A stretch of DNA of 64,000 nt from Minutocellus sp. GHC0000111 (Eukaryota): NCBI GenBank assembly GCA_977018835.1, contig OZ361261.1, positions 930,001 through 994,000 on the forward strand, written 5' to 3'. A program made the position numbers and the translations under genes. Below, one piece after another: positions 4,365 to 60,032 of this stretch (positions are counted from its first letter, which is position 1; each line of letters begins with the position of its first letter). The notes under the pieces are model-generated. The model did not search any database. It was given only the letters and a program-made list of their open reading frames with translations, and had not been told where the DNA came from.

Positions 4365-7300
4365 TTAGATGAGATCCTTCTCGATGGCGAACTCCTCTTC
4401 GTCGGTGTCGAGGTCCTCGCCGTTCTTGAGCTTGTTCTTGATCTTCTTGACCAGTTGCTTCTCCTCCTTCTTGGAAAGCTTCTTCTTCTGGCCCTTGACC
4501 TTGGTGACGTTACCGGCGGCATCGGTCATCTCGGTAATTTGTTGTTGGTCGTTGATCTTCTCATCCTGCTTAAGCATCCAGTCGGCATCACCCTTGGTCT
4601 CAAGGTGGCCGGCGTCCATGACCCAGGTCTCGGGGCAAAGCTTCTGGCAGAACTCGTTGTTGTGCGAAATGATGACAACACCACCGTCGAAGGTCTCGAT
4701 GGCGCCGGCGAGGGCACCGAGGGACTCGCGATCGAGGTAGTTGGTGGGCTCGTCGAGGATGAGGATATGGGGCTGGTTCCACATAGCAGCGGCAAGGACG
4801 ACCTTGACCTTCTGTCCTCCGGAGAGGGCAGACATACGGTAGTGGGTACCGAACTCACGGTTGAGACCGCAATCCTCGAGGTGCTGCTCGACGTTCTTGG
4901 TGGAAAGAGGACGGACGTAAAGACCGGCACGCTGGGCGATCTTGAGATCGACGGCCTTCATGGCCTTCTCCCAACCCATCTTCTTGAGGGTCTTGGCGGG
5001 AAGGTACTCGCCAGAGTCGACGGTGGAGCCAGCGTACTTGACCTCGTACTCGTAATCCTTGGACTTGTTCTGCTTACGGCCACCAACGAGCTCGGCGACG
5101 ACCTTCTTGACCTTGGTGATCTTGCCACTCTCCTCATCGACGAACTGGATCTCGAAGGGGGTCTTCTGGAGCTTCTCCTCCTCCTCGGTGAACTGCATGG
5201 TAACCTTGACGAGGGACTCCTTGTCCTCACCGTTGTTGGCGTAACGCCAACGGACGTATTCATTGGGGGTCTTGTTGAGATGGGCCTCAATGTGGTGGAA
5301 GGCGTGCTGGGCGACGTAGGCGATACGGGCGTTGGGGTGCTTCCAGACGTCACCGACCTGGGGCTCGATCTCACCGACGAGGAGCTTGATCATGGTACTC
5401 TTACCGGCACCGTTCTCGCCGACGCAGGCAACACGGGAGCTGAGGGAGACCTGGACGGAAATGTCGAAGAGAGTGGGCTTGTCGTTGACGGGGTAGGTGA
5501 AGGTGCAGCCGGACATCTTCATGAGGGCCTTACCCTTGGACTTGACACCCTCGATGGGACCAGGCTGGGGGAACTTGAACTTCATCTTCGACTCGGAGAT
5601 GGAGAAGTAGGCACGGGCCTCGGGCTTGAGCTTGACGAACTCGTCAAGGTTGCCCTTGAAGGCGTGGAGCTTCAGGTTCTCGATCTGAAGGATGTTGGTA
5701 CAGCAATCGTTGAGAAGGCCGGAATCGTGCGACACAATGATGGCGGTAACATCCTTGAGGGAGTTGAGGTAGTTCTTGACCCAGGCAACGTTGATGACGT
5801 CCAAGTGGTTGGTGGGCTCATCGAGGAGAAGAATATCGGCCTTTTGAAGCATGGCTCGGGCAAGAGCGAGCTTCATGCGCCATCCACCGGAGAGGGTGGA
5901 CACGGCGTTGTCGGGCTTGGCCTTGCCGTCCTCAGTGAAACCGACGGTGGCAAGGACGCGGCGGACCTCCTCCTTCTCAATGTTCATGGCCTGGATCTTC
6001 TCATCGATGAAGACGTACTCGACGCAGGACAAGTGCGACTGCTCACCCTGGATATCGGCCTCGACGAAGACGGTACGGACCTCGGTAACGTCGGGGAAGC
6101 CCTCGACCTGGTTGTTGGCGATGGCACGCATGAGGGTGGTCTTGCCGGAATCGTTACCACCGAGAAGACCGTAGTTCTTACCACGCTTGAGCTTCATCTT
6201 GGTGTTGTGGAGAAGAATCTTGGTACCGTAAGCGAGGGTGAACTGGCAGTTACAGAGCTCCTCGGCATCGTCGTCCTCATCCTCCTCCTCGGGGATGACC
6301 ATCATCTCCTCGGCCTTGATACGGACGGCCTCGGTGGCCTTCTCGGCATCGGCATCGGACTTGAATCCCTTGAGGCCGGTAGCAACGTTCTTCTTCCACT
6401 GAAGGTCATCCATCATGTGCAGGTCCATCATGGTAGTAGAAACGACGGCGAGGTGCTCAATGACCTTGGCATCGACGTCGTCGGCAACGCCAAGGGCGGT
6501 CTTAAACTCCTCGGCGATCTTGGAGGTGTCGCCACGGGTGGTGACGGCCTTGTCGGCGAGGGCCTTGAGGCGCTGGAGCTGGGCAACGGCGCGCTCGGTG
6601 ACCTCACGGGCCTCGGGATCGGCGATGGACTCGGCGTTGGTCTCGAGGGCGGGGAGGAGGAGGGGAAGGAAGGGGGCGGCATCGACCGGGTTGTCAACAA
6701 GCTTGGACATGTTGTTGATAATGACGGCGGACTGACGCTTGGTGGCGGTAGCCTTCTCGCGGAGACCGCGGAGGAGAAGGGGGACGACCATGGCAAGAGC
6801 GGGAGACTCGACGGACTGGACGAAGGTAACGCCAGCCATCTCGTGCATGATCTCGGGGACCTCCTTGGGCTTGGTGATGGCGGTAATGATCTTGGCGTTC
6901 ATGTGCTCAATATCCTTGTTGCCGATGACCTCGCAGGCGGCGCGCATGGCGTCGGTGGAAGCGGTCTTGACCTGCTTCTTGGTGTCCCACATGCAGGCGG
7001 TAACCTCGGGGACGATCTCGGGGAGGGCAATACCGAGCTGCTTGGGGGCGGTCTTGGCGAAGAGAGCGACGCAGTTGAGGGCGAGGACACGCTCCTGCCA
7101 CTTCTTCTCGACGGGAAGACTGGCGAAGAGGGAGGGGAGGAGGCTCTTGATTGCGAAGGGGTTCATCTTCTCGCAGATGGCGGTAGCAGTCTCCTCGGCG
7201 GCCTTGCGGACCTCGGGGTTCTTGGCGGTGGCCTTCTCGAGGCCTGAATTTTCATTCAGCGGGAATTGAAGGAGATAAATGTAAAAGGACATGATGACAG

Positions 7301-7746
7301 TGAGATATTATTTGTATTCGCGGATAATATATGTGGAATTTTGGATGCAGTTGTGCGCATATCAGACGAGCACAAATGTGATTCACACGGAGATTCATTG
7401 TCGAGAAAAAATGACCCATCAAACTCCAATTGCGTTCGTGCAATTGCGCCAACAGAACAATACGTGCTCGAAATGAAATTCCAACCGGAAGACACGCCAC
7501 TATCAAAAACTTACAGGCAGTGAGGCACTCCTTGGTGAAGGCATCGGCCTCAGGAACGTCGGCGAGGGCCTTGGCGGCGGCAAGGCCGGCAAGGGCCTCG
7601 TCGTCGGTCTTGGAGGCACACTTGGCGACGAGGCCGGCAATGTTGGCGGCGAGGCCGGACTTGGCGACACCGTCGGCCTTGACGGCGTCGGCGAGGGAGC
7701 CGGAGTCGGCGAGGGACAACTTCTCGAGAGCGGATTCGATGGACAT
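4365..7746 (-). CDS. Translation elongation factor 3 (eEF3)-like HEAT + twin ABC ATPase
   Basis: Exon 1 7746-7515, intron 7514-7244, exon 2 7243-4365; HEAT region, EELCNCQFTLAYG, GGNDSGKTT, LSGGWRMK, GENGAGKST, LSGGQKVK; strong C-ending codon bias. Confidence 0.93.
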
Positions 7747-22348: not shown

Positions 22349-22817
22349 CCATTGGGATTCAATTTCACTTTATACATGTTCCGAAGACTGTGAAGAAACA
22401 AACACATGGAACAGAAGTGGGGCGAGAATTCGAAGGACGGTCGAAGGTCGAAACATCGTCATGGAATTTCGACTTCTGCGTCGAGAATCATGTGCTGCAA
22501 AATTCCTTATGTCAAAGAAATGGAGACACTAAGGTCGCAGTTGAGATGTATTCGCAAATCCCATCGAGAGGTACATCTAATCAATCAATGCGATGCAGTG
22601 AAGAAAGATCGATCGTACGAGGTCCGGGACAGCAATTTCGGGGACCCGGTTTTTTGGGTCTTCGGACTTTCCGACACGGCGGTTTGCGCGCACCTTGAAA
22701 AACACGCGGCAAAGCAAGCAAATCAAAACACATCCGTCAACAACCGACCTCCAAGCAATTACCACAAATAGACTGGGCAACTTCTGCCGACTGGCGCTTC
22801 AAGAAGCTTCCATACTC

Positions 22818-23960
22818 ATGGATACTCCAAAGGGACACATCTTCAGTCCACCGCGTCCACCGAAACGCGCCGAGGCGACTGCATTCAGCCCCTCGCGCCA
22901 TGAGAAGGAAACTTCCAACGAAACGCCGGAACATCCGCGGTATCGAGAGAACAAGGACAACGATGACGAGGAGGACAACCAAGGGGTCCCACCGGCATCG
23001 TCAGACCTCACATCTCCTCGTGTGTTGAAATATCAACGCGAGTACAACGAAGAGGATGGCTTCGCCGCCGAACAAGCCCAAGCAAGGAAGTACTTGCATC
23101 ATGACATATTGCGTGCCGACTTTCGCGGTACCGCTACCGTTTCATCTCATTCTGATGAAGATGATTCATTCTCAGAGATGAGCATAGCAACCGCCGACGC
23201 AAAGCCAAGCGGCGAGAGGAGAAAGCCCGTGAGCTCATTCGACCTTCCCTCCGCCACGCCCATGGTAACAAGTGTCCAATGTCAGTTCATACTCAGTATG
23301 CTCTTACCCCAAGCCGCTCATGCCCGTCGTTCAGCAACCTTCAATTGTCATCCCCTACCATCTTGGAGCCCTTGCCTCCAACCGAACCAACCGAACGACA
23401 GATTGAACGAGAGGTTGAGGAACATCGGAGGCTTGCGTGCTTTTTGACGTACGGAGAAGCACCACTACCACAAGATATAAAGAACTACAAGTCGCCCACA
23501 TGTAAGCAGAGGCCCGAACCAAGAAGAAAAGAGAAAGGGGTCTACCTCCCCTTCAAACAAGTTCCTGGTTGGGGTAGCGAGGTCGCGGTCACCACAGTGC
23601 TAGGCATGATCGAAGTCGATCGCCAAGTAAGAGAGGGTCGTGGTGCCTACCCGAAAGGGTGGAGAAGCAAGCAGAGAACTCGGATTGTATGATAACAAGA
23701 CAATAGAATTCTCTATTGCATTATCTACTGACAAGATTGCATTAGATGCATATAAGTTGGGATATGAGGATGGGAGTAAACAACCAACTGCTCACCCTGC
23801 CCTCACTGACAATAAACTTGCCGATGCATATGGTGTGAAGCGCGGAAAGATTCGTCAGTCCCTCCACGCTGTGTGGCTTTCTAATGATCATAAGAAGGCC
23901 AAGGAGGCAAAAAAGAATACCGGTAGAAATAGAAGAACAAAGAAGCCCACCGTGATATAA
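22818..23960 (+). CDS. Second (cargo/accessory) gene inside the transposon, unknown function
   Basis: Three consecutive + strand ORFs joinable through candidate introns (~23265-23335, 23502-23561) and one frameshift near 23670; AT-rich 3' region shared with the transposase. Confidence 0.45.
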
Positions 23961-24055
23961 ACAAACCAATGCTGCTGCATCTTACATGTAGATCTATAAA
24001 TAATTTGTAGACGTGTAACATTTATTTAATACATGTGTAAAGATATTAATACTAT

Positions 24056-26131
24056 CTATTTATTAGAAGGATGACGAGCTGAGGGCTCCATCCCCTTGGC
24101 CGTTTCGTTGAAGTCGATCCTAATTCCAGTGTGCAAGTTTTCGTCACCCAACCTTCCAACAAACTCATTGCTACCACCGGCCTTAATCACCAGGCCCATT
24201 ATCCTCCAGTACTGAATGAAGGCCGAAGCAATTTTGCAGTTAGGCATGCTATCGTAAACGTCCTCGGCAGTGTCCCAGATCTGGTCGGTGGAAATGACGG
24301 AGGTGCCTACCATTTTTCGTGCCCATTCCGAGTGCCGCCGGCTCATCGCGGGGAACACGCTCAAGTCAAGGACGTTGGCGTGAGGCATCTGCGGTGCCTG
24401 TGGCTGCCACGTCCAGCCTTGCTCAGCACAGAAGTTAGTAACAAATTGCGTGAAGGTTCCGTCCTCGTGAGGCCCGGCCTGGTCGCCCTGGATAATAACA
24501 TGGCAATCTTCGTATTGCTTGCCCGGACCGACAAGGTTGAGAATCGCTGGGAAAATAGTCTCCTTGAACACGAGGAGCAAAGAGCATTTCGGATCCTTTT
24601 TGGTGCCTTCGTTCGATCCAGTAACGCAACAATCAACAAGAAACGACTCTCCTTTCCGGCGAAGAGTTTCCTTTGGTGTCCCATCGGGGTTGGTATTTGG
24701 GTACCGTATTGAACCATCAGGCTGTGTTACTGCTTCGCACTGAGCTCGCTCCGCTATTTTAGGAGCTTGAGCTCGTACCAGTGGCAGTTTTACAACCTCG
24801 CACCCATTCTCAAGAGAACCGTCAAAGACAGCGGCAACAAATGCAATGGCCATGACCTTGTTGATGTGGCTCCTGTGAAAGGCCGCGTAATCTCGCTTTT
24901 TCACGCCGACTTCCTCGCAAGCCTTCGCAAAAGCTCGGAGGACGAGACCCCAGAACCATTTCTCATCGTAATGCACGAGGAGAACTCGCTTCTTTCCATT
25001 CGGTAAATTGCCGTTCTCATCCCGAATGTTCCAGAAATTCCGCACGAGCTGAGCAAAGGCCAGATGCTTAGCTTTTTGAGCCTCCGACAGGCGCGGCACC
25101 AGCCGCTCCTTGTAGAAAGTGAAGGTGTCGAATGACTTGAGCCACCGCTCAATCGTCTTGTGCGAGCACCACAGACCAATGTCCTGCTCCAAACCACGGA
25201 ACGATCGCTGAGGATTGCTGGAAAGGGCCGCAACAATGTCGCTCTGTATGTACGGCTGCCTTGCCAAGTGCTCCCGCCTCTTCAGCTCCCACAGCTGCTT
25301 GTCATCGTCGCTGATGGTGTCGCACTCGGTCAGGTACGTTTTGAGCAACTCATTGTCAGCCTCCTTCGATACAGAAGCATGGCAGTCTTCCTTTGCCTCT
25401 CTGCACTTATTGATTGCATGCAGGCGCTTAGCAGCAAAGCACTGCTCAGCCGTCTTGTAATCGTCAATGGTAGACTTTGGCCGAACCGACGAATCCTTGG
25501 GAGCGGGGGTGACAAATGCAAGCTCGGCCTGATCTGCTGGTGTGCCCCGGGCAATGGCATTCTTCCGAGACTCGTTCTGGATGTCTCGCAGCCCATTCTT
25601 GCCCTTCCCCCACGCTCTGCAGAGCTCACGAAAAGTGACCCTCCCATCCGACTGAAACTTCTGCGATGAACTGTTCCTGCTTGAGTGCTGCGTCCCTCCG
25701 GTGCTCTTCAACTGCACTTCCAGAAGCAATCCCTGGGCAAAAAGCATGCTCTTCTCCTCGTCGTTCAATCCCTTCTTGCCTTTGGTTGCTTGATTCGCCT
25801 CCTTTCGAAGATGTCCATCGGCCATGGCCTTTTCATCCTTCCGCTTTTCTCGTTTCAAGGTGTCCCTTAGCCCTTTCAAAGCCTCCTCTGCAGCTTTGCA
25901 TTGCGCTTCGGCCTCAACCAGCAGCACATCCAAATTCTCCTCGGTCGATCCACCAGAGTTGGCGGTGCCGGTAGCAGAAACACCGACACTGGCAGGATTG
26001 CCAGATTCTTCACTGTTGCCGCTTCCATCCACCACCATGGACTCGGCGATGCCCCCAGCTTCGATGTTGTCATCACCAGGACGAGCAGCGATACCAGCAT
26101 TGTCCCTCGACCGTCGGCTCAGGGCTGGCAT
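24056..26131 (-). CDS. Mariner-like DDD transposase
   Basis: VHYDEKWF, IQGDQAGPH, QAPQMPHANVLDLSVFP; 38 residues between the 2nd and 3rd Asp; frame intact. Confidence 0.9.
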   Translation of the reverse strand: MPALSRRSRDNAGIAARPGDDNIEAGGIAESMVVDGSGNSEESGNPASVGVSATGTANSGGSTEENLDVLLVEAEAQCKAAEEALKGLRDTLKREKRKDEKAMADGHLRKEANQATKGKKGLNDEEKSMLFAQGLLLEVQLKSTGGTQHSSRNSSSQKFQSDGRVTFRELCRAWGKGKNGLRDIQNESRKNAIARGTPADQAELAFVTPAPKDSSVRPKSTIDDYKTAEQCFAAKRLHAINKCREAKEDCHASVSKEADNELLKTYLTECDTISDDDKQLWELKRREHLARQPYIQSDIVAALSSNPQRSFRGLEQDIGLWCSHKTIERWLKSFDTFTFYKERLVPRLSEAQKAKHLAFAQLVRNFWNIRDENGNLPNGKKRVLLVHYDEKWFWGLVLRAFAKACEEVGVKKRDYAAFHRSHINKVMAIAFVAAVFDGSLENGCEVVKLPLVRAQAPKIAERAQCEAVTQPDGSIRYPNTNPDGTPKETLRRKGESFLVDCCVTGSNEGTKKDPKCSLLLVFKETIFPAILNLVGPGKQYEDCHVIIQGDQAGPHEDGTFTQFVTNFCAEQGWTWQPQAPQMPHANVLDLSVFPAMSRRHSEWARKMVGTSVISTDQIWDTAEDVYDSMPNCKIASAFIQYWRIMGLVIKAGGSNEFVGRLGDENLHTGIRIDFNETAKGMEPSARHPSNK

Positions 26132-27242
26132 CGGCGTTATTGGATGACGAATTGCGCCGAGCAATTTGAATTTGAGAAATCGGCACATCTTGTGCCGGAT
26201 CAGGACCGGTCTGGCTCGGACAGCACAGCTCCTCCTCTCGGGCTTGCTCCACAACATCCTGCTGTTTCTGAAGTGAGAGGCTCGCCCATGCCCGGTTCGC
26301 TATGGTCTGGATCATCCCAGGAGACTTGCCACGAATCGTAGAGGCATCGATGGTGCCGCTCCGATGGACAAAGCAATCAAAGCATGGGATGGAGCTGCCG
26401 GACCGACGGGAGCGGCGACATGCTGGCGCATCAGCTGCGGTGGCAGCAGCAGTAACAGCCATTTGCATTAATATGGTGTTGGATGCAGCATTTTGTGGCA
26501 GTAGAGCAACAGTTTGTATGTCGGGTGGGTTGGAAATGAGGAAGGTTTCATTGAGTGGCGGGCGCGCCGGGCGGGTGATGATTTTTTTGGCCCGCTCGAT
26601 TTTGGCGCGGGGTCACCCGGACCGCATAAGATACGCCATTGTGGGGACCATGGAGACCGATATCGGAGCTCAAACCATATGGCTACTTGAATCAATGCAT
26701 TTGGGAGGTGGTGGTGGGGTCGGGAGGTGGAGGAGGTGACCACCGGTTGTCATCGGAAAAACTGGCAGAAGTCGGGAGGGGCGATGGATGGGGTGAATCG
26801 GCCAGACGCTGGCATGGGAAGATGAAATCGATATCTCCGAGTCGGTCCAAGGTCAAGGACCAACCCGTTCTGGAGATACCACGCTTATCCCTTGCGTGAA
26901 GCGGATGCCGTCGGCACTGCCGTCACCGCCATCTTGAAGACACAGGATGACAGCAAATAAATGCTGCATGCAAGCTGCGTGCGTTTGTGCTGATTTTTAT
27001 GAGATTTTGCCCAAAGACCCGAAAACCGGGTCCCTGAAACTGCTGTCCGCGACCTCGTATCCAACATGGATCGATCGTTGTGCTGCCGATCAACGATGGC
27101 ACAGATTGTCGAGTCGAGAATTTTAGAATTGCAGAATAGCCTTCTCGACATGATAACATAATGACGCCATAGAAACTTGATTAAAGATAATTTACCGATA
27201 ACACCGACGTCTACAGCACCACCAGTAACGGCATGATGGCAA

Positions 27243-28951: not shown

Positions 28952-31900
28952 ATGGACGGAGACCGGTGGATCTGCCCGTCGTGCACCACGCGGAACAAGG
29001 ACACCAAGCTCCGCTGCGGCATATGCATGCGGTCGAGGCCCAAGGCCCTCCTGACCAAGGCGGCGGCGGCAACCAAAAAGTCGAGTAGCAGTGGTCCACC
29101 TAACGGTTCGAACGCAGGCGGTGCCGGTGGTCGTTCGCTCGGAGCCGCTTCAGCTGACGTGGTAGACCTCACAACGTCGCCTCATCAGACCGGCGGTGCG
29201 GGCAGCGGCCGTCGACCGAGTACCGAGTCGGCCCGAAGCAAAAAGCGGCGAAGGGAACGAGAGCAAGGGCGGGGGTCGGGAATCGGCAGCTCGTCGGTGC
29301 TCTCCTCGTCATCGTCGGCGTCGTCATCCGCATCACCGGCAACCTTGGGCGATAATGGCGTGTCGGTGATTTCCCGCAAGGAGAAGGGTATGGAAGCTAC
29401 GTCATCCAATAGCAATGCAAGCGGTGGAAGGAGTAGCAATGACGACCTACCAAAGCAGAGGCAAGATGTCTCTAAGAAGCAGAAGAAAGGCGGCAGTTCG
29501 AGTAGCAGCAGTAACGGTGCCAAGCGCTCGACTGCATCTATGCAGTCGACGTTGTTTGGCAAGATTGTCACCGGTATCCGTGAGAAGGATGCATCGACTT
29601 TGCCCACGACATCTCGAGCGTACGACAGGCCCAGCAATGACGACGCTACTGCCAAGAAGAATCGTCAAGAGGAGATGAACGCAAGTGATAGCGGGACATC
29701 TACAACTGCGGCTACCAACAACAGCGCTGGCACTGGCAATGTGTTCGTTGAGGGCAGATACCAAGCATTAAAGGCCAAGGCCGATCGCGTCATGAAGGAA
29801 ACATTTGGCATTTCATCTTTGCGGAATTTACAGCCCCAAGCTGTCGATGGTGCTCTCCGTGGGCAGTCTCAGATCATTGTGATGGCCACGGGCGGCGGAA
29901 AGTCCTTGTGCTACCAATTGCCAGCGGCGGTACTGCCCGGCGTAACGGTCGTGGTGTCACCTTTGATTGCGTTGATGCAGGATCAGGTCCAGGCGCTCAA
30001 TGCAAAGGGTATCCCGGCAGCTCTTTATTTCTCGGCCAATGGACAGAGGGAGAATACCGAGGTGCTGCAGCGTCTAGTTGGAAAGAGTGGCAGTAAGAAG
30101 GGCGATAAGAAGAAGCGGGCTGGTAGCACAGGTGGTAATGACGCCGGCCTACCGGCACCCAAACCGCTCAAGCTCATCTATTGCACCCCGGAATTGATTG
30201 AGACGGACAAATTTCGCGCAGTCCTTACGGACCTCTACAAGAGAAGGGAATTGGCTCTGTTTGCAGTCGATGAGGCGCACTGTCTATCCTCATGGGGTCA
30301 TGACTTCCGACCGGCTTTCCTCAAACTCACCTGGGTGCGTCAATCATTTCGAGACGTTCCCATTACGGCATGTACTGCCACCGCTACTCCGCGAGTCATT
30401 GCCGATATTCGTTCGATCCTTGACCTTCCCGATAAGATCGTTCCCTGCCATATGGGCTCCTTTAATAGGCAGAACATTACATATGAGGTTCGTTACAAGG
30501 ACAATATCGACTCGACCAACCCAAGGGGGGCAATGGGAGATCTCACTTCTCTCATTAAGAACGAGCACGAGACTGCCAAGGCTACTGGTGTTCCGGCTTC
30601 TGGCATCGTATACGTGCACAAGCGTGCCGATGCATCTATGCTAGCCCAGCGCATTTGTAGGGAGTCAGGGGTTTCAGCGCGGCCGTATCATGCTGGCCTA
30701 AAAGATAAAGAGAGGAAAAGCATCCAAACACAGTGGACTTCAGGTGCCGTGCAAGTTGTGTGGTGAGTGCTGCATTGTATTTGAATCTTTCACTGCAAAT
30801 GTGCTGGCAGAATAAATTGCTCATCGTGTATGAATCTCTTCAAATCCTATACTTTATTTCTTTTCCAAAAATGCAGCGCAACTATCGCATTCGGTAAGTG
30901 GAAAGGAAATGTTTGGCTAGTGAATTGTTTCCCTTTGTCTTCGGATTTGTCGGTGGCGCTTGTTTCTAACCACTTGATTCATAATTCATTTCATCCTTTA
31001 TCTCCCAAAAGGAATGGGAATTGATTTGGCACATGTCCGATACGTGATACACTGGAGCATGGCCAAAACAGTCGAGGGCTTTTCCCAAGAATCGGGCCGA
31101 GGAGGTCGCGATGGCAATCCAGCTCAATCCATTCTCTACTATTCGAAGGACGATGCCGGACTGTTTGCCTTTATCATCAAGAAGAATGCTGAGGGCAAGG
31201 CTGCCCAGAAAAAGAAGCAGGCGCAAGATGATCGGGCTTTGGCAGAGCTTCAGAAGATGGTGGACTATTGTACCACCGCTTGCTGCCGACGCAAATACCT
31301 ATTGGCTCATTTCGGTGAGAAAATTGATCCAAAGGCGGTCTGTAAAAGGACTTGTGATTTTTGCATCAATCCTCAAAAGACGGAAAGGGCCATCCTAAGC
31401 TCACAGGTTTCGCGGGATGTTGCTAAGATGGTCCAGCGAAGCTCCGGCTCTTTCAAAAAGACACAGGAGTGGGATGGCCAGTGGTCCAAACCGCACGGCG
31501 ATAGTGACGATGAATACGGCAGTGATATTGATGCAGATTTTGATGGCGAATCGAGCCTCGGCATCAAGCGATCTAGAGATATTCTCAAGCCGGAGGCGCC
31601 AAGGCAGAATGTCAAAGCCATCTGCCGCGAAAGGCTTCGGTGGTTTTGTGAAGGCTTCGAGCGTCTTGGATAAGTACGAAAAGATGGAAATGAAGGCGGG
31701 AGGAAAGTCTGGTGGAGGAGGATTCATAAATTTTCGTGCTCGGGACTCTGCGCCAGCTCAGGTACCCGCGCACATGAGGACGAATGCCCCAGATCCTTTG
31801 AGCCATTACAACAAGCCCAAAGCAAAAGCTACTGAAGGAAGTGCAGCAACAAAGTCAAGAATTGAACAGCTAAAGGCTGAGCTTGCCGCTGAGGACGCTG

Positions 31901-31953
31901 AATTGGAAAAGAGACGTGCAAAATTATTCGGTGCTGGTAACAAGAAGAAATAA
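28952..31953 (+). CDS. RecQ-family DNA helicase with an N-terminal RanBP2-type zinc finger
   Basis: WICPSCT..CGIC; MATGGGKSLCYQ, VDEAHCLSSWGHDFRP, TATAT, QESGRGGRDG, RQC Zn motif CRR..CDFC; introns 30763-30876 and 30894-31011; frameshift near 31620. Confidence 0.92.
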
Positions 31954-32015
31954 AAGCATGTAGGAAAGTGAAGGGTGCACAGTATCCTATTTTTACTGTA
32001 AGAAATTTGAGCTAG

Positions 32016-34400
32016 CTAGTTGTTAGTATTTTGAGACAATTTTCTTGCCCACTTGACAGCATCAACAAATGATTGAACTGCTTTTTCAGGAGAAGAAATT
32101 TCTCCGCCGCCCTTGATCCAATTGGATACAACATCAGCCGGGCTTTTTCTGCCATTGATTTTGTTTTCAACGATGCGATGCTCAACTATCTTTCCTCTTC
32201 GATCGACTTTGTAGACTGATCTTAATTCCAACTCCAAGGGGAAACCAAGGGGTGACTGTCCTTGTTCGTCATTATTGGGACCTCTTCGTCTCGGCGATAG
32301 AGATGGTAATAATGAAGGCCCTTCAATTCTCAAGGCAAGTTTGATATCGACTTGAATTGAGCCGTTTGAGAGCAATTCTATTCTTGGCACAATATCCTTG
32401 ACCGATCGAACACTACCAGTGCGAAGAGCGGTTCGAAGGGACCCTATCGACGCTGTGAGTGCTTGGCCATATGCCTTTGTGCCGCGCGCGAGTGTTTCGT
32501 AAAGAAGACCAAGGAGCTCTACTTCTTCGCTCAAAAATTGTTTGGCAGGAGTTAGTGCTGGTGCCGTTGCATCGACCAGAGAGGGGAGCTCTGAGTGAAG
32601 AGTTCGCATAATATTGTAAATTGCCGCCGCAGCTGTAACATCCAGATCTGGTGGTACTTGTTGCGCATTTTTCTTCAGTGCCGGGTCTGCTTGGCCAGTA
32701 GACCTGCTGCCAGCTCGTCCACGAGAGATCCGTTTGAGCACGTCGCCCAATATTTCTCCTCCGGCACCTCCTCGCGAACTTTCAACCGCAGAGATTATCG
32801 ATTGAATCCATACCGCGTCGATAATCTTGTTTCCTCCAACAATCAATTCTTTTTGAATAATATCTCTTATCTCGCCATTTTAATTTAAGTAAAAGACGTC
32901 GGTGCCTTCAACTCTGATTTGAACAGTAGATAACCACCTGACAGTGGCAGTTAGGTTCCCCCAATCAACGGAGATGTCGGCTATTCGCCAAGCATCCGCA
33001 GGGTCGCTTGAAAGCCCGGCATTTTGACGCAATCCCGAGGCAGCTCTGTAGAGGTCAGCCACCCTGCCACTGCCTGATACAAGAGTTGTGCCATCGAACG
33101 CCTTTAATTCGACATCAGACGCAAAGAAATCCCGGAATGATTTGCCATTTGGAATGGGAAAAATCGCTGGATCAATTTCCGCCGCGAGATATGGAATCGT
33201 AGTTTTGACGAACGATTGTAAATGACCATGTGCCAACTCATAGGGTTTCCACTCTTTGCCTCCGGGCAGTGGGTATTGATAATCGAATGAATCTGTCACA
33301 TTCTGGGGGGCAACGTCATTGACCTTCCAGCTAGAACTCGTCTTCCAAATCGTTTCATTGGTTTGCTGCGGGGGCGGAATATCTGCCACGAGCACTGGAA
33401 TTTCTCCTTTTTGTTTCTTTTTCGAGCCCCCATCGCTATCTCGCTCTTCTTGCACATTCTGCCTTTGTCTACTACCATTCGCAGCACTGGCAAGCTCAGC
33501 GAGATTGGTCAATAATGGAGCCGCGGCTTCAGCTGCCTCCAGAACCCAAGGTGAACGCTCGGTAACGCTCCTAACAGTCTCTCTCAACGACGCCAATCGA
33601 GGCCCGATGGCATCGACACTTCTGCCATCTATCTCCACGTGCAATATTTGGTGCTTGGATATCAAACCATCCGCATTGAATGTGAAAACAGACGATCCAA
33701 CTATCTTGGAATGACGCCTTGACGATGACGGATCCTCTCGTCGACTGCGCCTCCTTGTCGCAGAGGAGTCTGGAAGTGCACCAGTCACCGAAACTGGCAG
33801 CGTCGTTGTCCACTTGACATGAAGGACGGACAGCGATGAATCCAGCGTCAGCTCGCAATCCACAAGGTCCATGTCCAGGCCTTGATCGCCAGCATTCTCA
33901 ACTGCGCCCGATGTAGCAGCCGCGAGAAATTGCCCAGCTCTTCGTGCAGTGCCGATGGTAGTTGCAATAGCCTGACTCACAGACATGATTTCTTCTCTGT
34001 CGCTGCCCAATACCTCGCCCTTGGGTCCGATGAGAGCACAGTCCTTGGCGTAGGTTTGCTTGGCCTCGTCGGCCTTGATTGGAACGGTGAGCGTGCGAGG
34101 CAGCTGATGCCGCAGATTGTTGAGGGTGCTATGCACGGCCGATCGGTATGCAAAGTCCTTCTCGGACATGAGACCTGGTATAGAAGAGGCTTCTACTGCG
34201 TCAGCGGCGACATCGTTGGAAGTAACAGCAGACGCACACAAGATGCTTCGCCGGCCGCAATGAGAGGTGGCGGAGGTGGGGGCGGCGACTGCGCTCGGCT
34301 GCTTTGGCTCTCTGGATGTATGTGAGAAGCAGAGCGCCGAGCCCACAAGTATCAGAATAAGTGCGAGGTGCGTAAGCATCGCGTGTGCCGGGTAAGTCAT
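32016..34400 (-). CDS. Hypothetical signal-peptide (probably plastid) protein with NTF2/SnoaL-like repeats
   Basis: Signal peptide ending ALC-FS; repeated 'G.SVF.FN.DG.I..H.I'-like segments; two ORFs joined by a frameshift near 32860. Confidence 0.5.
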
Positions 34401-35732: not shown

Positions 35733-37007
35733 TTATGTTTCCGCGCTTCCCTCCTTGGGATCAAAAAAGAGCGGCTTCTTAACAATACCTCGGTCAATCA
35801 AATCTTGCTGTTTTTGCCGTTCTCGAAAGCGCTCCAGCTGTTTGTCAGTGAGGTCGCCTCGACAATGCTTACAACAGACGCCTTGGACGTAGTCATTCCC
35901 TGCCCTGTCGAATGCCGATACAGGCCGACGGCATCCGTGACAAGCTGAGTATTTATCCGAAGGAACCAAACCATGTTTGACGCTAACTCGTTGATCAAAA
36001 ACGAAGCATTCACCTTTCCAAAGAGATTCTTCTTCTGGCACATTCGCCAAATAAGCTAAAATTCCACCCTCTAAATGATAGATCGGCACGTCGTCTGGAA
36101 AGAGCTTGCGTGACAAAACAAAGCTTGTGGACTTCTCGCACCTAATGCCTCCAGTACAGAACATGGCCACCGCCTTGGGTTTGAGATTCAAGTGAATTGG
36201 CTCCTGCTGATTTTGTGATTCATCACCAACCTGTGGCATGCTTACCAGCTCTGACGTATCACTCTTGCCATCTCGTTCGTCCTTGATCCCGTCAGCGAAT
36301 TGCTGCATCCAGTCGGGAAACTCCGTGAAGGAAAAAGTATCCGGATCGACCGCATTGACAAACGTACCGATTTCAGTTTCATAGCGATTTCTCGTATCAA
36401 TCACCACGACATCTGGATCTAATAGCAAATCATCCCACTCTTTTCCTGGCTTCACATACGTTCCTACCGCCTCTGTTGGGTCTACAGAAGAATTGCCGCC
36501 GCTGCAAGCGCAGCAATCATTTTCTTTCGGGGCATTGGAAGTCTGCCCAGCAGTATCAGCAGGGCGGTCACATCCAATTGTCACAATCTCATTCTTCTGC
36601 TTGATTTTGAGCCTATGAAAGACGTGACCTCCGTTGGATTGGCTTGTCCTCGTTCGCAACCCGCCAAAGTATTTGTGCGATTGCAAATACTGCAGGACTG
36701 CATCGTGCTTATTAGCATCGTCGCCATCGCCAGTATTGTTTTCGAAGACCTGAGGCAGGGGATAGGATATCGTCCCATTGATGCCTTCCGGCGCTAGCAA
36801 TATGGTCCCTCTTGCGTTGGCCGACCGCAGCGTCGTCTCAACCTCCGCTTTGAGACTTGGAAGTTCGGTCGCAGGTATTTTGACAAACTTGTAAAGGGCC
36901 AAAATCCTAAAGGGAGGACGATTAGCAATGGTAGAGGCGGAAGTCGGGCCAGCGGCACCTGAATCATCGACGCATGAGCTGCTCTCTGCTGACATGGTGC
37001 TGGTCAT
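35733..37007 (-). CDS. trhO: UPF0176 rhodanese protein, TrhO-like tRNA U34 hydroxylase
   Basis: RGTILLAPEGINGT, IDTRNRYE, MFCTGGIRCEK, HLEGGILAYL, WKGECFVFDQR, RFRERQKQ. Confidence 0.85.
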   Translation of the reverse strand: MTSTMSAESSSCVDDSGAAGPTSASTIANRPPFRILALYKFVKIPATELPSLKAEVETTLRSANARGTILLAPEGINGTISYPLPQVFENNTGDGDDANKHDAVLQYLQSHKYFGGLRTRTSQSNGGHVFHRLKIKQKNEIVTIGCDRPADTAGQTSNAPKENDCCACSGGNSSVDPTEAVGTYVKPGKEWDDLLLDPDVVVIDTRNRYETEIGTFVNAVDPDTFSFTEFPDWMQQFADGIKDERDGKSDTSELVSMPQVGDESQNQQEPIHLNLKPKAVAMFCTGGIRCEKSTSFVLSRKLFPDDVPIYHLEGGILAYLANVPEEESLWKGECFVFDQRVSVKHGLVPSDKYSACHGCRRPVSAFDRAGNDYVQGVCCKHCRGDLTDKQLERFRERQKQQDLIDRGIVKKPLFFDPKEGSAET

Positions 37008-37152
37008 GCTGCATGGTTATTGAACCAAGTTCTGACTGCGTTGCATGCAGTAGCAGCATTAGCATAGCAGTGTGTGGATGGGTCGAGACGGCGGTCCGAC
37101 CTTCGTGCGTCAGTTCGCTGCAACACCCCTCATTTTTTTCCCCACACGCAAC

Positions 37153-52659: not shown

Positions 52660-53087
52660 ATGCACATGTAGGATGGGGCGTGAATACTGAGTAGATCTAA
52701 TAGCACAAATTCAATTCACATACCGTATTACAAATCAGCAAAGAGTGCCGCTAGTAGGAGTCAGGTGGTCGTTGCTACAACAAAGACCAACGGTCAGCAA
52801 TTCACTTGCTGATGATGCGATGGCTTCAAAAGAGGGACACCTACACATGTATCTTGTGCCATGGATACTGTACATGTAGGCCATGCTTGTTCTAACCTAC
52901 TTTCTTCACTTCCCATCGCCTGAGCATGTCAACATGATAAAACGACTGTGCAGAGAAAATTGTTTGTGTATGTAGGCCATCTCACATGAGGCGGTTTTCA
53001 TCGTTTCCGGGTTACTTTGTAAACACGCCTCGTTTTGGCATGCTTATCATTTACCTAGCACTAGAGGTACCTAGGCCTAGGTACTGC

Positions 53088-55020
53088 ATGGCGGAGACAA
53101 CAATGGCACCTCTCACAGCATATCGTTCCTTGCTAGTTGCCCTGGCCTTCCTTTCGTCGAACTTGACGAGGGGAGCGAGCAGTGGTGGTAACGGCGACCA
53201 GCAAGAGACATGTGCTGCTTCATCAGGTAATGGCGGTGGTGCCAGCAATGACAATGTCGCTAGGCGTACCTCCAGATTGCCGCGTCAACCACCCTGCCGT
53301 CTTTACCTGGCAGAATCGACAGTTCCCGATGCTGGTCTTGGCGTATTTTCAGGAGTGGACATGCCTCGAGGGGCGCCGATTGGTCAACCGGACGTCATTA
53401 TACAACTGCCTGACCCGTCACCGGACCACGCCGATGGTCTATCTCTGCTTTTGAATGATTACCTCTGGGACGGCCAAGAGACGGGTGGACAGTACGAAGG
53501 AATAAAAACGATGTCGGTCATACCGGGGATTGGTATGGCCGCAAACGGCCACCTCCACCTTTACAACGCCCTTCCATTCCGGCCCGATGTGGACGAGTCA
53601 GCTGTTGCACGGACCAAGTCACCAGGTGCTGGGGCCTTCACGCACTACCACAATTACTCGTTTTTCAGTCAGAGGCCAATCGCATCCGGAGGTGAAGTCT
53701 TTGTAAATTACGGCTCGAATTGGTTCCGCGAGAGGGAGGGGCGCAAGATGATATCGCCCATTGACGATGACGCAAGTGATACAGCTGACAGGCACACCCG
53801 ATCAATCGAGTGGTTGCATGAGAATGGCATATGTTTGGACACTCTCCGGCCTGGCCAATCCAAGATCAAAGACGCTGGGAGAGGTGTCTTTGCTCGTCGA
53901 TTTCTACCCAAAAGACTCCATCGTGGCACCATCACTGGTAGTTCAGATTACCAATAGGGATGCGTTGCGAACTGTCCGTGTCAAGTCCGACGATAGCGTG
54001 GAGAAAGGGTGGCAGTTGCTATTGAATTACTGCTTTGGTCATCCACAATCGTCTGTTCTGCTCTTTCCATACGGCAACGGCGTCAATTTGATCAATCACG
54101 ATGCTGAAAATGCCAATGTGATTCTTCGTTGGTCCAATTCAACTCAACACAAAGGGAAGGAATGGCCTGAGAGCATGTCGGTTGATGAGCTCAAGAAAAC
54201 AAACACGTCTGGCCTCATGCTCGAATTTGTGGCGCTCAGAGATATTCATCCTGGCGAAGAAATATATTATGATTATGGAAGCAAGTGGGAGGAAGCCTGG
54301 AAAAGTCACAAACAGCTTTGGAAGCCGTGGTCTGGCGCTTCATCGTCCTACAGCCCATCCTACATCATGGACGATGTAGCCCAAAAGATCAGGACTCAAA
54401 AGGAGCAGAAAGAATATCCCTACGCAGACAACTTATTTACCTCTTGCTTCTATCGGTACTCCGATAACGCTGGTGCTGAAGGATCGATAAGCAACGCCGA
54501 CAAAGTAGAAACAACGGCGGTGAGATGGGAATTAAAGCGAGGTATCTTCGATCTTAGCAATCTTAGGCCATGCACAATTCTCAAACGTGACCAAACTTCT
54601 GATGGAAAGCACTACCTGTATACAGTCCTCATTCGCAACAGATATGGCCTTCGCGAAGAGGAGCGGATACCAAAGGGCGCAATGCATGTCGTCAACTTTG
54701 TCCCGAGACATGCGATCCGATTCAGCGACAAAATCTACACCACCGACGCTCATCTGCCAAATGCATTTCGTCAAGAGATTAGGCTGCCAGAAGGTGTATT
54801 TCCCGAAGCCTGGAAGGATTTGACCAGAACAATCAAGCTAGCAAAAGACACTGTCCTTATCGAACGACTTGCCCTCAGCCATGGCCTTGTCTTTCTCAAC
54901 CTTGAGAACGATGCTCGTATTGACCCATCCAGGGATCAGGAGAGCACCTCGCAATTGGCCACCAGATTCGGCTCGCTCTTTCCGAAGTTCGTGCTCGAGG
55001 CCTTCAGTGCATGCCTTTAG
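53088..55020 (+). CDS. Secreted tandem SET-like domain protein
   Basis: Signal peptide; AESTVPDAGLGVF, GEVFVNYG, QSKIKDAGRGVFA, LINHD, GEEIYYDYG; frameshift near 53910; residues after ..AWKDL (~54822) overlap the antisense SDR remnant. Confidence 0.75.
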
Positions 55021-55518
55021 AGCGGCCTTTGACATGTTACATGTCAAGTTGCCAGGAGGCATCGTAATTCCCTGCTTGCTGCCCGTGTTGACGATGAGAC
55101 CGGGCTTGCCAGACTCTTTCATCTTGGGAACAAAGGCGAGGCAGCCATGAATGGGCCCATGTGTGTTAACCCCCATCACCTTCTGAACGACTTCCATGTC
55201 AGACAGTGCTCCGCTACCCTGACCAATGCCAGCGTTGTTGAAGAGAAAGTTTCATTCTCCAGTCGCCGCAAAGACCTTCTCCGCGACGCCGACCATGGCC
55301 TTCTCGTCGGCAACGATGGCTTGGATCTTTTGAGATTCGTCGGTCGCTTTTTCCGAGACGAGATTTTCCGCCGCCTTCAGGTCGTCCTCATCGACATCCA
55401 CAAGGAAAACATGCATGCCCTTCGCGGCACACATCAGGGCTGCCGCCCTGCCGATCCCACTTGAGGCGCCCGTGATGCACGCCGTCGCGCCAGGCCTGAA
55501 GTGCTCGGAGGTGCTCAT
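54838..55518 (-). pseudogene. Short-chain dehydrogenase (SDR) pseudogene, hypermutated and apparently 3'-truncated
   Basis: TGASSGIG, FNNAGIG, IVNTGS; catalytic YxxxK reads CNMSK; in-frame TGA at 55254-55252; no Tyr in the ORF. Confidence 0.85.
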
Positions 55519-55761
55519 GTTGCGTTCTTCTTGGCCGGAGTGACGAAGCGAGATGCATGCGATGCTCGGGAAAATTCCAGAATTGGACGATCTGTCGTCG
55601 TCCGTCACAGCTTCGAAGCTCTCCGCTCTCGCCGCTCCGCGCGCTGTGTGATGGTCTCCATCTGACCCTGGACTGCTTTTACGGCGCCGTTTGCCTGTTG
55701 AGCGCACTTGTGACTGTTGCTTGCCTGCTAGCTAGTGCCTGGTCCACTGCTTCATGCAACG

Positions 55762-56307
55762 ATGACGACCCTCCGCCCCCTCCGAATGGACGACCTGTTC
55801 AAGTTCAACAACATCAATCTTGACGTGCTTGCGGAAACGTGCAACGTGCCCTTCTGCCTGCAGCACATCAGTCAATGGCCCGAGGCCTTTGCCGTGGCAG
55901 AGGCTCCCGATGGCTCTCTTGTGGGCCACATGCTTGGGAAAGCAGAGGGCATGGGCAAGCTTTGGCATGGCCACGTGAGTGCCGTCACAGTTGCACCGAC
56001 GTGCCGGCGGCTGGGGCTGGCGCGGACGCTCATGGAGGACCTGGACAAGCTGTCGACCGACGTGCATGATGCCCACTTTGTCGATCTCTTTGTTCGGGCC
56101 TCGAACGGCCTGGCGATTGGCATGTGCGAGAGTTTCGGCTGTGTCAAGTGTCGGAGAGTGTTGGGATGTCACTCAGGAGACGACGCAGAAGATGCGTGGG
56201 ACATGAGAAAGGCGTTGCCTCGAGACAAGAACAAGGAGTCCACGACGCCGCTGGACCATCCGATGCGGCCCGAGGATCTCGAGTGGCAGCAGCAAGCGCG
56301 AGGGTGA
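55762..56307 (+). pseudogene. NAA20: NatB catalytic subunit NAA20/NAT3, hypermutated copy
   Basis: DDLFKFNNINLD, WHGHVSAVTVAP.RRLGLA, FVDLFVRASN, EDAWDMRKAL; contains no Tyr, with conserved Tyr positions mostly reading C or H. Confidence 0.9.
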
Positions 56308-57228
56308 CGTGCCCAAACAGACTCACTCTGCATGTCACAGTTTGACTCAACTGCTCTGTTGTGTGACATCAACGGACATGTTGTTCCCCTCGTCGACGCA
56401 CTCCTCTCCATTGGGGCCGCAGAAAAGGTCTGGCTTGTCACCAGCTTCGTCCTCCCCAAAGCGTCGCACTTTGCTCCGACAATCGTTGCAAGTCAGAACC
56501 AGAACCCGACATCTGCAGCACCGAGCCTCCTTGTTGTCACGTGGTGCACGTCCATCGTCACAATCATCACGTGGCACACTGCAGAGAAGGCACTTCCCCG
56601 CACGTCCTGGCCCTGCTGCTGGGTCCGCTCGACGGGGATCAAAGACGAAGTTGCGACCCTTGCAGAGACACGCCTTGCTCCCCGTCGAGTCGCTCTCGGC
56701 AGTCGCACCCTCTTTGTTTTGGTCTTCGTTCATGCTCCCGCATGCTTCAAGACGTCTTTGAATGCCACCTTTCAGTTGACAAATTTCCACGGGCTTGTCG
56801 CCCTTCCATCGATCGGAGTCTGCCAGCGCCTGAAGACACGCCGACGCGCGCTCACACCGAACACCCCCAGCACAGCACGTGCAAACTTTTTTGCCGGCCA
56901 GTTTTTCGGATGTCGCATCGAGTGCTGCCGGCAGTGATGAGCACTTGCGAGTGTTGGGGAGCAACGCAGGCACACCAGGGACGGCAAAATGTCCCACTTT
57001 CGACTCGCACACACTCCTGGCGTCCAACAACGCTGCACCTCCTTCTCCTTCGTTTTGCAATTGCTGACTCCATTGCTCTGGGGACAAGTGATGAGCAGGG
57101 GGACATGCCGTCAAGTCAACGTCCTCTGGTGAAGTTGGAACCACCGATGATTGACTGGACTCCTCTCCATCACGTTGCTCTTGCTTTGAAAATTGATCTG
57201 ACCCAACTGCTTGTTCTTGAGCACTCTC

Positions 57229-57275
<47 letters not shown>

Positions 57276-57276
57276 G
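57229..57276. repeat. (TTG/CAA)n microsatellite encoding poly-Gln
   Basis: About 16 uninterrupted ttg units. Confidence 0.95.
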
Positions 57277-57467
57277 CTCCTTTTCCAATTGTCTCTGCCT
57301 CTGTCTCCACTTTCTTGCCTGGCGACCTCCTCGTCTGCCCTTTTTGTTTGCAGCAGGCTCATTCTTCGTTTCACAGAGCGAAACCACCTCACGTGTTTGT
57401 TTGACCGACAGACTGTTGAACAACTGCTGCTCTGCTGGAGCGTCCGGTCTCAGCTTGCAGCGCTTGA

Positions 57468-57764
57468 CGTCGAGGTCGAGCGACGCGTCACCATTGCCGC
57501 CAACACCGCCATTGTCCTCAACATTTGAATCTGCAAATGTTCTCGTCAACTCGTCATGCAGCCGCTCGTCGAGGTCGAGCGACGCGTCACCATTGCCGCC
57601 AACACCGCCATTGTCCTCAACATTTGAATCTGCAAATGTTCTCGTCAACTCGTCATGCAGCCGCTCGTCGAGGTCGAGCGACGCGTCACCATTGCCGCCA
57701 ACACCGCCATTGTCCTCAACATTTGAATCTGCAAATGTTCTCGTCAACTCGTCATGCAGCCGCT
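57468..57764. repeat. Perfect 99-bp tandem triplication (33 aa, in frame)
   Basis: Identical units at 57468, 57567 and 57666 encoding ERLHDELTRTFADSNVEDNGGVGGNGDASLDLD. Confidence 0.95.
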
Positions 57765-58103
57765 CCTCATGTTGATGCAAGTCGACTGTGCGACCGCTGA
57801 GCGCTCCGTTGACGCCCTCGCGTGACACTCGGACCCGACCGTGAAGAGAGAGGGGTGCGCAAAGACCATTTTGGCATTGGATGTGCTGAGAAAGCGACTC
57901 CTGAGGGAGAGGCCGAGGCGTGTAGAGGCAGCACAGAGCAATCTGGTGCTGCTGTTGGGAGAGTTCGTCGCTCATCATTGACTGCTTGCTGGGTTTGTGA
58001 GGGGCAGGGCGCCACTGGTTGTGGTTCCAATCCAACTCGACTCATAACCTATTGAACCTGCCGCTGCTGCCGTCATTTTTGCTGCTTCCGTTCGTTCGTG
58101 GCC

Positions 58104-60032
58104 ATGAGCCCCGCCAACAACCGCCGTGGGTCTGCAGTTCTATCTGCTGCAGCTGCCGCTGCAATCGTCGTGGGAGCCTCATCTTCTGCGTCGCCGCAGC
58201 CGCCGCCGTGCTCCTCCTCACGACCACTCGCCACCGCTGCCGCCACCTCCACGTCGTCATTGCCCCTCAACGCACCGTTTGGCCTGAGCCGCAGTGCCGT
58301 GGAATCGTTGCGTGGCGGCGAGACAGAGCCCTCAGCATCAGCATCAGCGGCCGGTGATGGTCCCAATGTTCGTGGTGGTGCCGTCGGCGAGAAGAAGTCA
58401 AACCGAAAGAAGAAGAAGAAAAGTCGAAAGAAGAGCAAACAGACAAAGGCGGACAGTGGTGAAGCAGATGCAGGTGCAAATACTAATCCTGCCGATACTT
58501 CGAATCAAACCGAAACAACAGAGAAGGAATCTAGGCCCGAAAATGACGAGAAGCCATCAGAAGATAATAGTCAGCAGCACCACCATCGCTCGACACATTC
58601 ACATGCACACAGCCACCACAAGCAAAAATCAAAGTCCGGCACTGCTACTAGTAGCAATTCACAGCAAGATGCCATCATTGCCAGCATTATGGGTGCATCG
58701 GACCATTATGAGGTGTTAGGTGTAACCAAATCAGCCACCGAGGTGGAAATTAAAAAAGCATACCGTCGACGAGCCGTTCGAACGCACCCAGACAAGCTAG
58801 CAAACTCCGATCGAACGGCATTTGACAAGGTGGCCAAAGCCTATGAGGTTTTATCGGACGAAACGAAACGCGGATTGTATGATCGGTTCGGTGATGAGGG
58901 AGTAGAGGCGGGAGGCAACCCCAATCCTGGCTTCGGTGGGTTTGGATCTGGCGGTATGTTTGGCGCTGCAAGCGCCGAGGAGGTATTCAGTCGATATTTC
59001 GGCGGCACCGGTGGAAGAGGGGTGCCCAACAGTTTCAATCCTTTCCAACCTCGCAACATGAACAAGAAGTTTGAGATGGAGGTGGACCTGGAAGATCTCT
59101 ACAATGGCATCACCCGCAAGGTCACCATGGCACAACCGCCAACAACTCCCAACGGACGTCGAACCAGAAAGACCGTCGAAGTTACGATACAGCGAGGAAT
59201 GATGGCTGGACAATCGATAGTACTGCCAGGAGAGATGGATCAAGTTCCCAATTCAGCTCCAGCTGATATAATTTTTGTCCTGGCACAGCGGCGTCACGAG
59301 ACATTTACTCGACGAGGTCATGATCTCGCGATTGTTGTGACCATATCGCTTCGGGAGGCTCTATGTGGCTTTCGACGAAGCTTCATTCATCTCGACGGTA
59401 GGACAGTGGTCATTGCTCCGCCTCGCGGTAGGAAGATTTATCAAGAGAAGAAGCAAAAACAGATCGAACCAAATGCAGATGAAGAGGGTGAGACTGGCGG
59501 TGACGATGAAGTGGAACAGATCCCTCACGCAGCACCGATTATCATACGCTCTGGAGATATTCATGTCTTGAAGGGAGAGGGCATGCCAAAGCCTGCAGGA
59601 ATGAACTCCAGGGGCGGTGGCTATGGAGACTTGTACGTGCAGTACAAGGTAGAAATGCCATCCGCGGCATCTGGTGCTGGTAACAGTCTCACAATTGAAG
59701 AGCGTGATGAACTGGATCGACTACTCCGCAAGCTTGAAGGAAGTACGCCCAACGGCATGCAAGGGACGGAACTTATGGCAGAGGAGATCGATGCAGATGG
59801 GAACAAAATTCGCTACATGCAGCGGGCATCAGCCGAAGACTTTGGCAAAGCAAGTGGGCCTTTTGAAACATATGACCACCACGGCGAGGAGCACTTGTAT
59901 GGCGATGACGAGGACCCAAGCAGCAACAGCTTCTTCCAAGCGTTTGGTGGTCGTGGCTTTCCAACATCTGGTTTCCACTATTACTCATCATCCTCTGGGC
60001 AGGGTGGCGATCAACAATGCCAACAGATGTAG
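58104..60032 (+). CDS. DnaJ/Hsp40 chaperone (J domain, G/F region, C-terminal domain, no Zn finger)
   Basis: DHYEVLGV, EIKKAYR, HPDK, AYEVLSD, LEDLYNG, ISLREALCGF, KGEGMP, terminal CQQM CaaX-like motif. Confidence 0.92.
   Translation: MSPANNRRGSAVLSAAAAAAIVVGASSSASPQPPPCSSSRPLATAAATSTSSLPLNAPFGLSRSAVESLRGGETEPSASASAAGDGPNVRGGAVGEKKSNRKKKKKSRKKSKQTKADSGEADAGANTNPADTSNQTETTEKESRPENDEKPSEDNSQQHHHRSTHSHAHSHHKQKSKSGTATSSNSQQDAIIASIMGASDHYEVLGVTKSATEVEIKKAYRRRAVRTHPDKLANSDRTAFDKVAKAYEVLSDETKRGLYDRFGDEGVEAGGNPNPGFGGFGSGGMFGAASAEEVFSRYFGGTGGRGVPNSFNPFQPRNMNKKFEMEVDLEDLYNGITRKVTMAQPPTTPNGRRTRKTVEVTIQRGMMAGQSIVLPGEMDQVPNSAPADIIFVLAQRRHETFTRRGHDLAIVVTISLREALCGFRRSFIHLDGRTVVIAPPRGRKIYQEKKQKQIEPNADEEGETGGDDEVEQIPHAAPIIIRSGDIHVLKGEGMPKPAGMNSRGGGYGDLYVQYKVEMPSAASGAGNSLTIEERDELDRLLRKLEGSTPNGMQGTELMAEEIDADGNKIRYMQRASAEDFGKASGPFETYDHHGEEHLYGDDEDPSSNSFFQAFGGRGFPTSGFHYYSSSSGQGGDQQCQQM

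Follow-up and report, generated by a model that had tools for sequence, protein, structure and literature searches.

A tract of 2,190 nt in the diatom Minutocellus (55734-57922) lacks the TA dinucleotide, where about 73 TA would be expected, and it covers two host genes, NAA20 and a convergent TrhO/UPF0176-like gene. We consider it probable that a region-targeted mutator of mobile DNA saturated this 2- to 3-kb NAA20-TrhO domain, likely on one homolog. The features discussed lie in the window, which is the whole stretch of 64,000 nt that was analysed:

54841..55518, minus strand: short-chain dehydrogenase (SDR), broken version, the partly mutated left shoulder of the tract
55734..57922, no strand: TA-free hypermutated tract, from the TA-gap count and simulation
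55762..56307, plus strand: NAA20 (NatB catalytic subunit), mutated version, from sequence comparison and intact versus mutated contigs
56347..57978, minus strand: TrhO/UPF0176-like rhodanese gene, mutated version, convergent with NAA20
57468..57768, no strand: 99-nt unit, three identical copies within TrhO
22616..27059, minus strand: Tc1/mariner-like element, with 38-nt inverted ends and the transposase at 24056-26299

The TA-free tract and its two genes

The tract is real and not a product of chance: when the window was simulated 200 times with a Markov model, the longest TA gap was 450 nt. The loss is confined to one region, since there is a single gap of 2,190 nt, whereas 23 further long ORFs are near normal, with 1.0 to 4.3% tyrosine and 19 to 38 TA per kb. 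Two CTAG survivors (55729 and 55733) mark the left edge, just upstream of the NAA20 start, and on the right, at about the TrhO start, a lone TA survives at 57923, followed by others at 58045 and 58050. Within the tract, CA (1.43) and TG (1.45) are raised and AT is lowered (0.76 versus 1.11), and the CpG ratio is normal (0.94 versus 0.95), without CpG decay. No transposon or viral sequence lies next to the tract within this window.

The first-pass annotation had described an NAA20 copy with zero tyrosines, and this description holds. The region 55762-56307 on the plus strand is a single open frame of 181 residues with no tyrosine, which matches human NAA20 (chain 7stx_A) with an E value of 5.8e-55 and carries the GNAT fold of PF00583; it matches P0002 at 89%, and its best named matches are diatom proteins at 69 to 75%, from which the host is taken to be a diatom. 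In contrast, each of 140 NAA20 homologues of at least 160 residues has at least 8 tyrosines (mean, 11.9). The closest intact protein, P0249, differs from the window frame at 21 positions, comprising 11 tyrosines (7 changed to Cys and 4 to His), nine other residues and the stop, and all 21 are reachable by A>G or T>C alone; the mutated version has thus lost 11 of 11 tyrosines. Beyond what had been noted before, two stops are erased, and the feature is a tract over two genes instead of a single gene. The native TAG at 56287 (56287-56289) is read through, and the following stop at 56293 has likewise disappeared, which adds six residues. Cys122 of the mutated protein aligns with the catalytic Tyr123 of human NAA20, whose Y123A substitution costs 95% of the activity, while Y27A, Y137A and Y138A have mild effects (PMC7494357, excerpted text). 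Judged from this alignment, the mutated protein has probably lost its activity.

The TrhO-like gene has lost 17 of its 18 tyrosines, and its native stop near 56360 is read through. Its true intact allele was not found among 112 matches and the cluster members, and the relatives P0262 and P0263 were used in its place, so that the TrhO counts include strain differences. At 63 positions the window differs where these two relatives agree, and 59 of the 63 differences are explained by A>G or T>C; two of the four unexplained changes match P0265. All three copies of the 99-nt unit share the mutated residues, and the relatives carry one copy, so the triplication likely postdates the hypermutation, and we rejected it as a trigger for the same reason. 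Two further observations concern this family. A (GTT)n microsatellite at 57229-57276 encodes a Gln run in TrhO that is longer than in the relatives, and a second, intact UPF0176/TrhO-like paralogue with 10 tyrosines lies at 35733-37016.

Intact and mutated versions in sequencing runs

Twenty of 24 listed runs contain the stretch or part of it; the evidence below comes from seven examined runs, and the other thirteen holders were unused. Run contigs allowed a comparison of two versions over 56096-56434 (339 nt). Two contigs are present there in X2 and X3, which are samples from a single study, and in X12, which belongs to a different study; in each pair, one contig equals the window exactly and the other carries 34 differences. 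The depths of the two versions were 89.8 and 83 in X2, 86.9 and 77.4 in X3, and 5.2 and 8.6 in X12, a ratio of about 1:1, and the stretches common to both showed the summed depth in these three runs. The flank depth in X3 was 142 to 167, about twice that of each version. In the same run, at least 57 C>T and at least 60 G>A places were seen over 53500-57200.

Almost all of the 34 differences belong to one class: 33 are A:T>G:C and one is a transversion. On the plus strand these 33 divide into 13 A>G and 20 T>C changes (p=0.30 for the split), which are interspersed, and neither NAA20 nor TrhO shows a transcription-related strand bias. X14, which comes from another organism and yields one contig, agrees with the intact version at each of the 32 sites that are visible (32 of the 34 differences of X3), and therefore the window version is the derived one. 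Every one of the 23 TpA steps of the intact version was lost, 11 to TG, 11 to CA and one to CG. By context, 24 of 46 TpA adenines changed versus 8 of 127 other adenines (p=1.5e-10); because TpA is palindromic, an attack on T is indistinguishable from an attack on A. TAY (22/34) was hit more often than TAR (2/12; p=0.007), with TAT at 15/23, TAC at 7/11, TAA at 2/5 and TAG at 0/7, read on the strand of the A. Outside TpA, ApT sites changed in 7 of 43 cases versus 1 of 84 for the others (p=0.002); in detail, AAT reached 4/10, CAT 2/14, GAT 1/19 and AAG 1/8, and the rest remained at zero.

The earlier annotation had proposed that nearly all divergence was of this one transition class, which the 33 of 34 changes and the complete loss of TpA bear out. 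Its ATA>ATG and ATA>ACG changes, given there as probable, are seen directly in the intact version (at 56265 and 56246-56247, respectively), and its threonine-to-alanine change is supported at the protein level as T24A in the comparison with P0249. Its narrower rule of TA to TG, CA or CG stands for the TpA steps but falls short for the remainder, because, of the 32 visible changes, 8 fall at other sites, among them 7 at ApT. These additional changes may reflect over-exposure after TpA saturation. They are unevenly spread: the non-TpA share was 1/15 in the NAA20 part versus 7/17 downstream when counted by nucleotides (p=0.04), and 2/22 in NAA20 versus 33/62 in TrhO when estimated from proteins (p=0.0003), with the ApT damage heaviest in the TrhO-like gene. 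Such a rise would fit a dose gradient centred on TrhO.

The order of 5' neighbours of the changed A, T (24/46) > A (5/34) > C (2/37) > G (1/56), brings polymerase errors to mind. WA is the motif of Pol eta, TAC and TAT are hot spots of somatic hypermutation, and there A>G is favoured after T and then after A. Repeated error-prone synthesis of the Pol eta or iota type, with G placed opposite T at WA motifs, or else thymine oxidation, would follow a similar order, and yet we regard this origin as improbable. Pol eta produces many transversions, and somatic hypermutation has a mixed spectrum and a low density, whereas the spectrum here is pure and saturating, with one transversion in 34 changes and no indel between the intact and mutated 339 nt in X2 and X3. 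Saturation of TpA would also demand a rate far above that of known repair clusters.

The mutated version is letter-identical, with 0 differences, in runs of four studies from 2016 to 2024, and errors of base calling or assembly are thereby excluded. That the sequence is an artefact of sequencing or assembly, or that a sole NAA20 undergoes RNA editing or recoding, is extremely improbable on other grounds as well: nothing speaks for it directly except that RNA-labelled runs contain the mutated version, and their contigs equal the DNA letter for letter, with no editing back. A-to-I RNA editing in particular is ruled out, since A>G and T>C occur together, which editing of one RNA strand could not produce, and since the DNA-like runs contain the mutated version, at half depth. 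In addition, the protein P0001 is found on 8 contigs from two sources.

An intact NAA20 elsewhere in the genome had been predicted by the first-pass annotation. An intact version, P0249, does exist in the same samples; the two versions are most likely alleles of the native locus, with one homolog mutated, rather than copies at two loci. This allelism is deduced from the half-flank depth of each version and from synteny with the relative L001, which keeps the order SET-NAA20-TrhO without SDR; the depths are contig depths, and contigs show neither strand nor level and drop rare variants. L001 was the one informative locus, for synteny, of 11 in a JGI metagenome scan, none of which was closer than 85% at the protein level.

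Three runs behave differently. Over most of the tract, the contigs of X1, X5 and X8 match the mutated version exactly, and none with the 34 differences was seen among them. X5 (RNA on record) is unbroken and identical to the window over 55446-57200 at a depth of 15.3, and it also contains two SDR versions at depths of about 6 each. In X8 (RNA on record) the contig has no gap over 56069-57200; farther left it is interrupted and shows a few differences. X1 comes from the sample that also gave the 1:1 run X2. It is continuous over 54852-57200 and takes the other SDR version; its depth was 36 on the tract versus 8 to 11 on the flank, and no library type is recorded for it. These mutated-only runs are not what a silent, complemented allele would predict, and they count against our preferred explanation. 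The pattern could arise from allele-specific RNA, loss of heterozygosity or assembly simplification. The first-pass annotation had named a sole, expressed NAA20 as the outcome that would suggest editing or recoding; the intact version in X2, X3 and X12 speaks against a sole copy, but X1, X5 and X8 hold almost only the mutated one.

These runs give some footing to a reading that we hold to be unlikely but worth weighing, namely that targeting is linked to transcription, with the mutated allele over-transcribed on both strands, or that some strains lost the intact allele by mitotic recombination. The genes are convergent and have lost stops and, presumably, AT-rich 3' signals, and their RNA or exposed single strands would draw the mutator; the tract boundaries, which lie shortly ahead of the NAA20 start and near that of TrhO, would agree with it, as would the excess depth in X1. 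Frequent loss of heterozygosity is described for diatoms in the excerpted text of bioRxiv 2020.11.08.373134. Against it stand the blindness of contigs to strand and level, the unrecorded library type of X1, the possible presence of DNA within RNA libraries and the lack of strand bias in either gene; moreover, a viral (NCLDV) target of a comparable process in Bigelowiella natans is transcriptionally silent (bioRxiv 10.64898/2026.01.13.699255, excerpted text). A bolder form, to which we give an equally low credence, supposes a diatom DNA adenine mutator guided by RNA or transcription that would lock on one allele of an essential gene and wipe out TpA and then ApT, the mutated allele being the main source of RNA; some strains may then live without an intact NatB subunit.

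Flanking genes and the Tc1/mariner-like element

The SDR gene to the left of NAA20 would be a partly affected shoulder of the domain. It carries an in-frame stop at 55252, lacks 9 nt at 55306, and reads Cys at 55040 in place of the tyrosine of what we take to be the SDR motif YxxxK. Eight of the 12 sites with G/C in the window and A/T in the other version fall at TpA. Its 3' end is probably cut at a junction near 54843, as read from the contigs. There X1 forks, and another sequence joins that, read by hand, would continue the SDR frame; by this comparison, the SDR 3' end and the DNA that separates SET from the convergent SDR gene would have been lost from the window version. The two SDR versions show about 24 mixed-type differences in about 370 nt, a divergence that exceeds that of the flank and that would also suit old paralogues.

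It is conceivable on this evidence that a duplicated segment was the target, as in a reversed repeat-induced point mutation (RIP), and that the window holds a decaying paralogue with the intact copy elsewhere. The two SDR versions, the fork near 54843, the placement of the intact protein on a 3.28-Mb contig and of the mutated one on a 0.56-Mb contig, and the fact that repeats (the transposase family) are targets too would all agree with such an origin. We nevertheless judge it distinctly improbable, because each version stands at half the flank depth in X3, with common stretches reaching the summed depth in three runs, synteny places the genes where the window has them, and the internal 99-nt repeat is younger than the damage.

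Several observations on the surroundings are recorded here. The SET-domain gene (52941-55020) has a frameshift in the window from one extra base at 53910; all four runs compared contain the version that lacks this base, and X1 contains both; its frame runs into SDR without the stop that is present near there in L001. In the common upstream region of SDR and NAA20 (55496-55744), the versions differ by 1-, 2- and 8-nt deletions and an unresolved 138-nt stretch, a possible promoter lesion. The 5' part of a DnaJ gene (58050-58481) is TA-poor, with one TA in 430 nt; it may be the right-hand shoulder or just GC-rich. In L001 (2853-7789, compared with window 31227-34259), what comes after TrhO is homologous to window 32028-34259 and to the RecQ end, which implies that one lineage has a rearrangement breakpoint where the tract ends on the right. 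Far to the left, 4365-7307 is a long ABC-type ORF, presumably resembling the elongation factor eEF3, with a 965-residue open antisense frame.

The same process has likely also struck part of the Tc1/mariner-like element. It contains a 397-nt TA-free gap (25471-25868), and its transposase has Cys or His at five ancestral tyrosine columns. The close clusters of this transposase family contain no fewer than 200 protein records, and we aligned the window transposase with 15 outgroup proteins and with 60 proteins from its four closest clusters, which together have 200 members. Nine well-aligned columns were kept of the 22 in which the outgroup has tyrosine; the other 13 were dropped for thin coverage, misaligned rows mixed in, fixed Phe or invariance. 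Over 61 rows, the residues in these nine columns are Tyr in 234 cases, His in 38, Cys in 31 and others in 3, in many different patterns, cells that are not independent events given that the copies are related, while the outgroup rows have Tyr in 96 of 96. Some transposase copies lie on a contig equal in size to that of P0249. As an aside, the 38-nt inverted ends of the element begin and end with TA.

Related mutators and a proposed mechanism

The nearest known process is that of the alga Bigelowiella natans, in which de novo T/A>C/G mutations arise only at TpA in two viral inserts, at a rate raised 1000-fold and still acting in mutation-accumulation lines, and for which ADAT2 has been proposed as the enzyme (Mettrop et al., bioRxiv 10.64898/2026.01.13.699255, excerpted text, as for the figures below). 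Both processes produce nearly all A>G/T>C changes, turn TpA into TpG or CpA on both strands, are confined to a region and also occur in transposon-related sequences; the main B. natans target is single copy. They differ in other respects. Here the target is a set of diatom housekeeping genes at a syntenic site, probably on one allele, and no viral sequence was seen in the window, whereas there it is viral inserts; TpA is fully removed here and about 1.8-fold lower there; ApT as a second context and the TAY preference contrast with hypermutations that are all at TpA; and the extent is 2 to 3 kb versus 25 to 186 kb. Since it shares the spectrum, the strand symmetry and the regional confinement but neither the restriction to TpA nor the foreign target, we regard the Minutocellus process as a variant and not a plain member. 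From 211 mutations over 3,132 generations and 6,169 TpA in B. natans (bioRxiv 10.64898/2026.01.13.699255), a rate of about 1.1e-5 per TpA per generation is derived, which is a lower bound. At this rate, a TpA loss of 95 to 99% takes roughly 2.7 to 4.2e5 generations, so that no single burst is required.

Fungal RIP converts C to T, creates TpA and needs a duplication and a sexual cycle. It resembles the present case in its dinucleotide-specific transitions, its action on both strands, its saturation over rounds and its killing of the genes of a region. Here, however, TpA is destroyed (A:T>G:C, polarised by X14) and the target looks allelic; with the direction opposite and CpG at 0.94 versus 0.95, RIP itself is ruled out. 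TadA-derived base editors prefer TA and TAY. The amphioxus enzyme BjADAT2 edits DNA, prefers GAA, TCG and hairpin loops, and also deaminates C (PMC10354150, excerpted text); A-to-I conversion in DNA by ADAT2/3 would give A:T>G:C as seen here, but the context preference and the editing of C are unlike our data.

In our preferred explanation, the mutator would be recruited to a chromatin domain rather than to a gene and would act over many rounds with the preference TAY > TAA/TAG. Once TpA was exhausted, weaker ApT sites would accumulate, mostly in TrhO, the putative centre of the domain. The same mutator would likely decay the Minutocellus transposons and strip the tract on both strands. Tolerance of the damage is proposed to come from the other allele, which would provide NatB and TrhO. 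So pure a transition is better explained by deamination of a base (A to inosine) than by errors of a polymerase, and the predicted enzyme would deaminate adenine in DNA; an ADAT2/TadA-type enzyme is our guess.

In the literature searched, from which subscription journals were mostly absent, there was no paper on TpA hypermutation in diatoms, and a TpA mutator is described from one rhizarian alga only, with viral targets. What is probably new here is the diatom host, the native housekeeping genes, the probable 1:1 intact allele, the saturation, the ApT tail and the polarised motif. The locus offers a clean before-and-after pair within one diatom, and its motif (TAY > TAA/TAG, then ApT, no CpG decay) can be used against candidate enzymes. 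As the two versions differ at 10% of sites, allele-specific tests are easy; annotators who meet a tyrosine-free open frame in a diatom may be looking at a dead allele. The process can remove a native copy of an essential gene in gene-dense DNA, which bears on how such mutators are targeted and is relevant to the high allelic divergence of diatoms.
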